Made by a program: the position numbers and the translations under genes
The notes under the pieces: model-generated
Databases searched by the model: none
Told to the model about the DNA's origin: nothing
The model's input: only the letters and a program-made list of their open reading frames with translations
Assembly (NCBI GenBank): GCA_016714165.1
Contig: JADJNU010000001.1
Location: forward strand, 1,411,536 to 1,475,535
Direction: 5' to 3'
Length of the DNA stretch: 64,000 nt
Source of the DNA: Bdellovibrionales bacterium
GTDB lineage: Bacteria; Bdellovibrionota; Bdellovibrionia; Bdellovibrionales; UBA1609
In this document: positions 22,253-28,177 of the stretch, piece after piece
Layout: each line of letters begins with the position of its first letter
Position numbering within the stretch: position 1 is the stretch's first letter

Positions 22253-23839
22253 TCATGGCTTGCGGGATCGCCACCCAGAATCAGGCACGAGCGACATCGC
22301 GTATTCTGAAATAGCAGTAATCGATAAACTGGGATTGACTCCTAGGTTGGCAGAAATCACCGATGCATCTAGCACATAAAAATTATCATAGCCATTGAGC
22401 TGAAACTTGTCGTTGATCACGCCAGTTTCTATTTCAGATCCCATCGGACAGCCTCCCAATATATGTGCGGTGGAGGGCAAATTATAGAACACCTCGTGAA
22501 TGGCGTTCACGGAAAGTCCATTCACCTTTCTCGAAAATCTATGCATGACCTCTTGACCAACCTCGATATAAGTGGGAACAGCCAGACCTTTAGCCTCTCG
22601 CATTTTCATATTCCAACCAAAAATTGACTTTTCTAGAACCATTTTCATCGAGCTATCAATTGTCTGCATCACTAAAAAGAATACAGATGTTTCTGCAAAT
22701 CTCCGAACGAAAAAATACCTCATCGCAGAGAGGGGGTTTGATAAAATCTGCGCCAAACATTTTAAGATTCGGACTGGAGCCGGCCCAGGTCCTGCGGCCA
22801 ACACCCCTAGACGACCCATCAAACCGCTGCCGTTAGGATATTTGCAAATCTCAATAAATGTTTTGTCGTCGGGGTGAAAGACAGAGGAGATCGCCACGCC
22901 ATTGTTCAGCTTACGATCAGCCAATGCTGTCCCACACAAAGACTCAGAATTGGTTCGAAGATCTCCACCCAAATGATCTGAAACTTTTGGCAGCGTTTGA
23001 AACTTATATTTTTGCTCTAACAATATCTTCATCGTTCCTAAAACGCCAGCTGAGAGAACAACACCTTTACTGCGAAAAATATCCGTCTTCCAAATTTTCC
23101 AACTGGTGCTTTTTCGAGTGTGAATCCAGTATTCATCGCCTTTAATCTCAATTTTAGTCACCAAAGTTTCAGCTCTGATTTGACAACCCTTCTTCTGTGC
23201 CAAATAAAGATAATTCAAATCCAAAGTGTTCTTGGCCAAATGCTGGCATCCTACCATGCAGCCCGCACATTGGGTGCAGGGCTTTCGCAATGGACCTTCG
23301 CCATCAAAATAGGGGTCAACTTGCTCATTTGATTCTGAAAAATAGACTCCGACCTCGACCGGAGCAAACGTGTGTCCCATTCCCAAATCTGTGGCGACTT
23401 CATGAAATATTTGATCTTCGACGTGCAACTTCGGAACAGGAACGGTTCCCAACATCTTTCTTGCCAAGGCAAAAAATGGCTTTAATTTTTCCTCCCAATC
23501 TCCGAATCGCACCCAAGAACCTTGTCGAAAAAACTCTTTATCGGGATACATATGGGTGTTGGCGTAAACAAGACTACCTCCCCCAACCCCAACTCCGCTC
23601 AAAATAAAAGCTTTGTTAAAAAAGTGAATTTGCTGAATCCCAAAGCATTTTAAGAGTGGCCACCAGAGATATTTTTTAATATGCCAATTGCTCTTTGCGA
23701 AATCCTCGGCCCTAAATCGTTTCCCCTTTTCCAAAACGAGAACAGAATATTTTTTTTCAATGAGTCTCAGTGAGCTCACACTCCCACCAAAGCCAGAGCC
23801 TATCACTATGTAATCAAAAATCGGATGACTATCGGCCAT
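22253..23839 (-). CDS. GMC-family FAD-dependent oxidoreductase (cholesterol oxidase-like)
   Basis: N-terminal FAD fold DYIVIGSGFGGSVSSLRLIEKKYSVLVLEKG; length 528 aa; C-terminal GMC-type region. Confidence 0.75.
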   Translation of the reverse strand: MADSHPIFDYIVIGSGFGGSVSSLRLIEKKYSVLVLEKGKRFRAEDFAKSNWHIKKYLWWPLLKCFGIQQIHFFNKAFILSGVGVGGGSLVYANTHMYPDKEFFRQGSWVRFGDWEEKLKPFFALARKMLGTVPVPKLHVEDQIFHEVATDLGMGHTFAPVEVGVYFSESNEQVDPYFDGEGPLRKPCTQCAGCMVGCQHLAKNTLDLNYLYLAQKKGCQIRAETLVTKIEIKGDEYWIHTRKSTSWKIWKTDIFRSKGVVLSAGVLGTMKILLEQKYKFQTLPKVSDHLGGDLRTNSESLCGTALADRKLNNGVAISSVFHPDDKTFIEICKYPNGSGLMGRLGVLAAGPGPAPVRILKCLAQILSNPLSAMRYFFVRRFAETSVFFLVMQTIDSSMKMVLEKSIFGWNMKMREAKGLAVPTYIEVGQEVMHRFSRKVNGLSVNAIHEVFYNLPSTAHILGGCPMGSEIETGVINDKFQLNGYDNFYVLDASVISANLGVNPSLSITAISEYAMSLVPDSGWRSRKP

Positions 23840-26893: not shown

Positions 26894-27403
26894 ATGACGA
26901 AGGTATCTAGATGGCTGATTCTGATTGTAACAACAATTCCAATGCTTCTCAGTTTTCAGAATTGCGGAGATAGATATTTACCCAAGGTTCACATCGCTTC
27001 GCAAAAATCGGATATCAAGTTTTCAAAATTGAATGCTGTCAGAAAAGTCGAGGCCAATTGCCTTTCAGGCTCTTCCTACCTGTGTCGAATCAATCGTTAT
27101 TCTCCAGGACTTGCCGATGGCCGCCGTGTCAATCACGTTTGTGTTTCAGTAGAGAATAATGAAGTTTGCGTTGATGGAGATGACTGGAGTTATGATTCGT
27201 CTGAGGCCCTCCAATTTTGTCCAGATTGCTCCGCTGCCGATGGCCTTCCTGGAGGACGATATGATTACGCAGAGATTGCCTGTTCCTTTGGAGATGAGGC
27301 GAAAATCTATTCGCGCGCAGAAAGCTCCGAGGCGAAGATCGAAGAGTACTTGAAAACGTCCGTAGAGCTGTGTCTATTTGAGGCAAGGCAACAAATACGT
27401 TAA
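26894..27403 (+). CDS. small secreted cysteine-rich protein (169 aa, ~10 Cys), hypothetical
   Basis: Signal peptide MTKVSRWLILIVTTIPMLLSFQNC; many Cys; no recognisable domain. Confidence 0.45.
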   Translation: MTKVSRWLILIVTTIPMLLSFQNCGDRYLPKVHIASQKSDIKFSKLNAVRKVEANCLSGSSYLCRINRYSPGLADGRRVNHVCVSVENNEVCVDGDDWSYDSSEALQFCPDCSAADGLPGGRYDYAEIACSFGDEAKIYSRAESSEAKIEEYLKTSVELCLFEARQQIR

Positions 27404-27427: not shown

Positions 27428-28177
27428 TTGCCAGGAAACGACGAAGAGGCTATTGTGAGACTATTGTTATTTTTCTTTCTCTTCGCTCTTGCTCCCATCG
27501 ACAGTCACGCACATGTGGCTCTGACATCTCCCACTCCACGACCCGGCACCACAGATAGCACGAAGACAGCTAACTCTACAACCAATCCCTGTGGCGGCGT
27601 TAACAGAGGGGCAAATTCAGTTACATTTGCGGCAGGATCTAATTTGACATTCTCATGGAGAGAAACAATCGAGCACCCTGGAAGATTCTTGGTGCAGTTC
27701 TCACCGGCGAATGATCAGTCCTTTGAACTTCCTGCCAACGAACTCTTTCGCAAAGAGGACACAGAGACCAGGGGAACCCATTCAGCGACCGTAAAGCTGC
27801 CAAATACAGCCTGCGAAGCCTGCACACTCAGGTTGGTTCAAGTAATGGATGACCAACCCGGAGAACTCTACGTCAATTGCGTGGACATTCGCTTGACCTC
27901 TTCATCTGAAACGGCTCCACCCAATTCGGGATCGCCAGAAAACACAAGCCAGGCCTCACAGGGGGGAAGCGATGGTGGAAAGACTAAAATGCCGGCTGGT
28001 TGCGCGCTCGCCTCGGGGCGACTCAATCAAATTGGAGACAATCGGCCAACCGGTGGGGGGCATTTCGGAAACCCATCTTGCGGCCTCATCACTCTTATGT
28101 TATGGACTTTGCCACTCCTCGCCTTGCTGATGCTGAAGGTGCAATCAAGAAGATTTCGATTCACACGTCAGCAGTAA
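27428..28177 (+). CDS. secreted compact AA10-LPMO-like protein (predicted N-terminal His after signal cleavage) with low-complexity linker and C-terminal Cys + TM + basic tail anchor
   Basis: Predicted cleavage ...SHA|HVALTSPTPR (cf. AA10 HGYVESPASR); FSWRETIEHPGRFLVQF (cf. FTWKLTARHSTTSWRYFIT); LVQVMDDQPGELYVNCVDIRL (cf. [21 protein letters not shown]); C-terminus CGLITLMLWTLPLLALLMLKVQSRRFRF. Confidence 0.45.
   Translation: MPGNDEEAIVRLLLFFFLFALAPIDSHAHVALTSPTPRPGTTDSTKTANSTTNPCGGVNRGANSVTFAAGSNLTFSWRETIEHPGRFLVQFSPANDQSFELPANELFRKEDTETRGTHSATVKLPNTACEACTLRLVQVMDDQPGELYVNCVDIRLTSSSETAPPNSGSPENTSQASQGGSDGGKTKMPAGCALASGRLNQIGDNRPTGGGHFGNPSCGLITLMLWTLPLLALLMLKVQSRRFRFTRQQ

Follow-up and report, generated by a model that had tools for sequence, protein, structure and literature searches.

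The locus analysed here raises the question whether a small exported protein of a Bdellovibrionales bacterium carries a copper site of the lytic polysaccharide monooxygenase (LPMO) type and, if so, how it would be held at the cell envelope. In the first-pass annotation of the window, i.e. the whole stretch of 64,000 nucleotides (64 kb) that was analysed, the gene had been read as a compact, AA10-like secreted protein that could form a membrane-tethered copper monooxygenase module. This reading is supported by the analysis, with copper binding and monooxygenase activity as its predicted properties.

The surrounding open reading frame runs on the forward strand from 27428 to 28177, as annotated, but the gene probably does not start at its first codon. 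Position 27428 is an in-frame TTG upstream of the GTG at 27455, and the latter is the likelier start, being preceded by GAGG and standing where homologues have an ATG, with GAGG or GGAGG ahead of it. The 240-aa product shows a 100% match to the NCBI entry 'MAG: lytic polysaccharide monooxygenase [Bdellovibrionales bacterium]'. Cleavage at SHA/H had been proposed to expose an N-terminal His, and the site is present; by this prediction from the sequence, His20 of the precursor would become residue 1 of the mature protein. The signal-peptidase rule is followed throughout the family: among 236 homologues, the prepeptide ahead of this His has a median length of 21 aa, position -1 is Ala, Gly or Ser in 230, and a hydrophobic core could be found in 232. 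The features of the locus are listed in Table 1.

Table 1. Features of the LPMO-like gene and of the partner gene upstream, with positions in the window.
Feature	Position	Strand	Remarks
Partner gene, 169-aa predicted lipoprotein	26894..27403	+	Signal peptide, lipobox-like FQNC, 8 further Cys
Lipobox-like F-Q-N-C of partner	26954..26965	+	Cys24 is the predicted lipidated Cys
CPDC (CxxC) pair of partner	27218..27229	+	Partner alignment, Cys counts; low-pLDDT loop
Shine-Dalgarno-like GAGG	27446..27449	+	5 nt ahead of GTG start; read from sequence
LPMO-like gene	27455..28177	+	GTG start; 240 aa plus stop
Signal peptide MRLLLFFFLFALAPIDSHA	27455..27511	+	Predicted SPase I cut after Ala19; Ser at -3, Ala at -1
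LPMO-fold domain, 131 aa	27512..27904	+	His20, His74, Tyr139, four invariant Cys
His20 codon	27512-27514	+	First predicted brace residue
His74 codon	27674-27676	+	Second predicted brace His; inside FSWRETIEHPGRF
Tyr139 codon	27869-27871	+	Predicted axial residue; inside ELYVNCVDI
Low-complexity Ser/Gly/Pro/Asn linker, residues 151-178	27905..27988	+	Sequence
Conserved Cys motif MPAGCAL	27989..28009	+	Cys183 at 28001-28003; lipobox-like
Hydrophilic Gly-rich spacer, residues 186-209	28010..28081	+	Ends in Cys209 (28079-28081)
C-terminal TM helix GLITLMLWTLPLLALLMLKV, residues 210-229	28082..28141	+	Hydropathy; internal Pro
Basic cytoplasmic end QSRRFRFTRQQ	28142..28174	+	Sequence

Profile searches placed the protein in the SCE4755 polysaccharide-monooxygenase-like family, named after sce4755 of Sorangium cellulosum, with a score of 99.1 bits against NCBIfam NF043005 (E 2.3e-28, profile positions 3-145 of 146; curated cut-off 75 bits). 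The best general Pfam match was BIM1-like_dom (PF20238), with 37.3 bits over nearly the full profile (1-139 of 140; gathering cut-off 27 bits), while LPMO_10 (PF03067) was matched with 28.6 bits, above its gathering cut-off of 23, in the C-terminal half of the profile only (81-183 of 183). An AF2 model of the domain reached a pLDDT of 96.6 and a pTM of 0.90, and its best structural neighbours in Foldseek were LPMOs without exception. According to DSSP, the model contains eight strands and no helix of at least four residues, and the helical L2 region is missing. A profile built from six close homologues returned nothing relevant among the PDB sequences and a 70-member family profile was needed; the latter matched TdAA15A (E 8.6e-5) and ScLPMO10C (E 9.3e-5) as well as AA16, AA9 and AA13 chains, with no X325 chain among the matches. 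The domain is a beta-sandwich of the LPMO superfamily in which the N-terminal His, the second His, the axial Tyr and the fold itself are all present, and its length of 131 aa agrees with the small size noted earlier (about 130 aa).

The two segments that had been likened to the second-His and axial Phe/Tyr regions of AA10 could both be aligned with solved LPMOs. His74 falls on the second brace His of TdAA15A (His91) and ScLPMO10C (His144), and Tyr139 on Phe219 of ScLPMO10C and on the axial Tyr of the AA9 enzyme PcGH61D. His1 is present in all 242 family members that are ungapped at that column, while the second His and the axial Tyr are conserved in 260 and 258 of 261 members, respectively. 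Gln129 (258/261) and Glu70 (247/261) are near-invariant as well, and Cys 46, 120, 123 and 142 of the domain are invariant. Glu137, two residues ahead of Tyr139, aligns with Glu217 of ScLPMO10C and with the Gln of AA9; it was dropped as a candidate second-sphere residue of the family, being Ser or Thr in most of the 261 members. A single copper ion would be bound by the His brace, and the site could support polysaccharide monooxygenase activity.

The resemblance to LPMOs holds at the level of profile and fold, but the narrower assignment to AA10 does not, given the half-length LPMO_10 match and a structure equidistant from AA15, AA10, X325 and AA11, with no closeness to AA10 in particular. Identity to the catalytic LPMOs of AA15 (TdAA15A, 5MSZ) and AA10 (ScLPMO10C, 4OY7; BtLPMO10A, 5WSZ; JdLPMO10A, 5AA7) amounts to 15-25%. 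Even the 15.5-kDa JdLPMO10A has a chain of 142 aa, against 131 aa here, and the usual AA10 architecture includes the helical L2 region and about 170-200 aa. Moreover, the axial residue is Tyr, whereas ScLPMO10C has Phe, and the catalytic AA15 and AA10 enzymes are secreted while this protein is tethered.

Annotation pipelines already recognise the family to which the LPMO-like gene belongs, and within it the gene itself is unremarkable: relatives in Bdellovibrionota MAGs are named as SCE4755 family, and 1279 representatives of 50%-identity clusters were found at E <= 1e-3. New here are Cys183 as the conserved Cys, the divergent spacer-containing tail, the orphan lipoprotein partner and the covariation of Cys residues. 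The NF043005 model, a 'hypothetical equivalog', covers the catalytic-like domain only, so that tail variants and partner gene lie outside it. In the literature, we found no paper mentioning the SCE4755 family, no copper, activity or localisation data for any of its members, and nothing specific on bacterial Bim1-like proteins or on LPMOs in Bdellovibrio or Myxococcus.

Downstream of the domain, the Gly/Ser linker, the TM helix and the RRFRF end proposed earlier were all found. Two tail types were distinguished in the family: in type A, a single tail Cys precedes a TM helix, after which the chain ends in a basic stretch; type B has no TM tail, and the protein ends near a lone Cys equivalent to Cys183 (1-9 residues past it). 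Type-A tails occur in 119 of 261 sampled members, with a median linker of 36 aa from the domain end to the Cys. A lone Cys precedes the TM helix in 113 of these 119 tails, with Gly at -1 in 100, and Pro lies inside the TM window in 89; the consensus around the Cys reads (K/P)(F/M)GGCG(L/T)V. The Cys adjoining the TM helix had been taken as the sorting-type residue, and here the annotation has to be corrected. This residue, Cys209 (PSCGL), is peculiar to the protein studied and is Gly in its four closest homologues (P0002-P0005), while Cys183 is invariant in the alignment with close homologues. From Cys183 to the TM helix there are 26 residues, compared to a family median of 15 aa for the spacer (IQR 10-18).

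The suggested likeness of the tail to MYXO-CTERM stood in part. It is backed by the high-GC relatives, since eight of ten pass the MYXO-CTERM model TIGR03901 with a tail at the same position. The tail of the protein itself, however, matched none of the NCBIfam C-terminal sorting models at E <= 10, and seven related Bdellovibrionota-type tails gave, at the same threshold, only one sub-threshold MYXO-CTERM match (P0034, 8.5 bits). The tripartite layout of Cys signature, TM helix and basic end is present, yet the signature does not abut the TM helix as in TIGR03901 and TIGR03382. Described Cys-type sorting signals have no spacer between Cys signature and TM segment (Haft, preprint 10.1101/2023.06.07.544157). 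Compared with the tails processed by the myxosortase MrtX of Myxococcota (TIGR03901; processing model in PMC11980579), the Cys after Gly, the TM helix and the Arg-rich end are shared, whereas the 26-aa hydrophilic spacer, the lack of a score by the model and the Bdellovibrionota host are different. In Bdellovibrionota, this tail is a MYXO-CTERM variant that has diverged and contains a spacer. No genes of CPBP, rhombosortase or exosortase-like type were identified in the window; the EExxxR motif is absent from every multi-TM ORF in it, and there were no relevant Pfam matches nearby. Among the Bdellovibrionota sequences sampled, about 450 kb in all (the window and the loci L001-L029), this tail was seen on no further cargo protein.

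The wall-anchored AA10s of Streptomyces are AA10 proper and carry an LPXTG-type sortase signal for the Gram-positive wall. They likewise place an LPMO fold at the cell's own envelope by means of a C-terminal sorting signal, and one of them, ScLPMO10D (PDB 7ZJB), is a Foldseek structural neighbour of the present protein.

The gene upstream had been described as encoding a Cys-rich secreted protein, and both properties were confirmed. Because of its lipobox-like FQNC, the product is a predicted lipoprotein: Asn23 and Cys24 are invariant in 26 partners, and the pattern [FY][QNST]NC closes the signal peptide. Its eight further Cys consist of six that are invariant in the family and the CPDC pair; the protein matches no known domain or fold. 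CPDC is found in most type-A partners but is missing from type-B partners and from the loci L008 and L009, and is therefore not a core feature. The partner gene lies upstream of the LPMO-like gene in 26 of 28 non-redundant loci and is the sole conserved neighbour; in the other two, the LPMO-like gene is situated near the contig start, with about 40 and 800 nt of sequence ahead of it. Four further loci and the low-GC metagenome loci contain the partner gene as well; two checked members without tail Cys and TM helix were also without partner.

The number of Cys in the partner follows the tail type of the copper protein. Past the lipobox Cys, seven were counted at all 15 type-B loci, and eight or six at all of about 20 type-A loci. 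Since an extra partner Cys occurs where the copper protein ends in a lone Cys, a disulfide tether is implied, and the type-B protein may be joined to the lipoprotein by an intermolecular disulfide. The extra Cys of the partner lies about 16-20 residues past the lipobox Cys. The type-B clade is roughly monophyletic, so that this covariation represents a few evolutionary events and not 15 independent ones. Genes for a CBM, a glycoside hydrolase or a copper transporter were absent beside the pair at every examined locus; the neighbourhood points to no substrate and to no copper route. A GMC oxidoreductase (22253-23839) was considered as redox partner and rejected, since inspection by eye showed no signal peptide and the gene is not conserved beside the pair at other loci.

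The explanation preferred here, with a probability of roughly 60%, is a tethered minimal LPMO-fold copper protein which, together with its partner lipoprotein, would make up a Bdellovibrionota-specific cassette of two genes. Of these, the second would encode the 131-aa mono-copper protein, with Tyr139 in axial position and a brace formed by His74 and the N-terminal His1 (His20 of the precursor). After export via Sec, signal peptidase I would cut at SHA/H, and this cut would leave a free N-terminal His that can chelate copper. The protein would then be held at the membrane by a C-terminal leash composed of the linker, the MPAGC183AL motif, the 26-aa spacer, the TM helix and the basic end. Processing as in the MYXO-CTERM and myxosortase system would then probably attach a lipid to Cys183 and remove the TM helix, so that the protein would be anchored by a lipid at its C-terminus. 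The first gene would supply an orphan disulfide-rich lipoprotein as physical co-worker of the copper protein. In sister lineages, where the copper protein ends at the equivalent Cys, it would be tethered by a disulfide to the extra unpaired Cys of the lipoprotein. As a result, a leash some 30-60 residues long would keep the copper centre at the envelope surface.

The copper centre is most likely of a redox-active (per)oxygenase type, acting on an envelope-proximal glycan of the cell itself or of its prey, and the close rival of this role is copper capture and hand-off in the manner of Bim1. The protein would in that case be a bacterial counterpart of fungal Bim1/X325, which binds copper at the envelope without cleaving polysaccharides and passes it to the CxxC of the partner, to a transporter or to a cuproenzyme. 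This would agree with the full-length BIM1-like domain match, with the tethering to the membrane, as in GPI-anchored fungal Bim1 (PMC10952591; PMC7924993), with the lack of CBM and glycoside hydrolase neighbours at any examined locus, and with the CxxC of the type-A partner and the free Cys on the flexible tail of the copper protein. However, none of the loci has a linked gene for a copper transporter or a copper chaperone, the CxxC is not found in type-B, L008 and L009 partners, and the near-invariant axial Tyr, Gln129 and Glu70 are expected of a redox-tuned site. In X325, the copper plane is completed by a fourth equatorial ligand, an Asp from a Gly-rich loop (PMC7529816). This Asp is a feature of the fungal proteins (PF20238; LaX325, PDB 6IBH) and has no invariant equivalent in the N-terminal loop of the SCE4755-type family, where position 15 is Asp in 80 of 261 members (Asp34 in the protein studied, within the GTTD34 of its clade). 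The family profile also matched chains of five AA families and none of X325. Differences from the fungal proteins are the bacterial host, an anchor chemistry with Cys motif, TM helix and basic tail in place of GPI, the dedicated lipoprotein partner and the lack of a linked copper importer. We regard a Bim1-like role as possible, though tentative. Far less probable is a secreted, nutritional AA10-type enzyme degrading chitin or cellulose for food like CBP21. The LPMO_10 score above threshold, the NCBI product name and the AA10 structures among the top structural neighbours point in this direction, but only half of the LPMO_10 profile is matched, the domain has no L2 region, the protein is tethered and not released, neither a CBM nor a chitinase or cellulase neighbour occurs at any locus, and the structure is no closer to AA10 than to AA15, X325 or AA11.

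A different question is the fate of the tail, which could also be the plain inner-membrane stop-transfer segment of a TM-anchored periplasmic protein, neither cleaved nor lipidated, with Cys183 serving, for instance, as Cu(I) ligand, as redox-active thiol or in a disulfide to another protein. The failure of the tail in all C-terminal sorting HMMs, the long spacer unlike known intramembrane-processed signals, the lack of a sorting enzyme in the 64-kb window and of a second cargo in the sampled 450 kb are consistent with such an anchor. Against it stand the high-GC orthologues, in which a genuine MYXO-CTERM occupies this position, the type-B relatives, whose chains stop a few residues beyond the equivalent Cys as though cut off where cleavage is predicted, and the strongly conserved lipobox-like context of the Cys, above all the Gly at -1. 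We regard a plain anchor as the less likely reading. Unlikely as well is an extension of the preferred cassette to a so far undescribed surface device of predatory Bdellovibrionota, in which a minimal LPMO-type copper oxidant would attack glycans in the envelope of the prey or of the cell itself. Such a device would be tethered either by a new, spacer-containing Cys-type sorting signal with a putative sortase or by a disulfide to a dedicated lipoprotein of novel fold. If true, the two interchangeable tethers would mark membrane attachment through one defined Cys as the selected trait.

Research on biomass conversion, on virulence and on copper biology has made LPMOs and LPMO-like His-brace proteins the subject of intensive study, and most of the families characterised are either secreted enzymes or GPI-anchored proteins of fungi. 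The locus described here belongs to a large bacterial family (over 1200 clusters when grouped at 50% identity) without an experimentally studied member in the literature found, whose members, judged from their sequences, appear to lie near the lower size limit of the LPMO fold and to be nearly always envelope-tethered. For the Bdellovibrionota branch, a conserved partner, a disulfide in one clade and a C-terminal lipidation and cleavage site in the other are predicted. If confirmed, these predictions would show that Cys-based C-terminal sorting is not confined to Myxococcota, and would provide a tractable bacterial model in which an LPMO-like copper site can be studied as an enzyme versus a copper handler.

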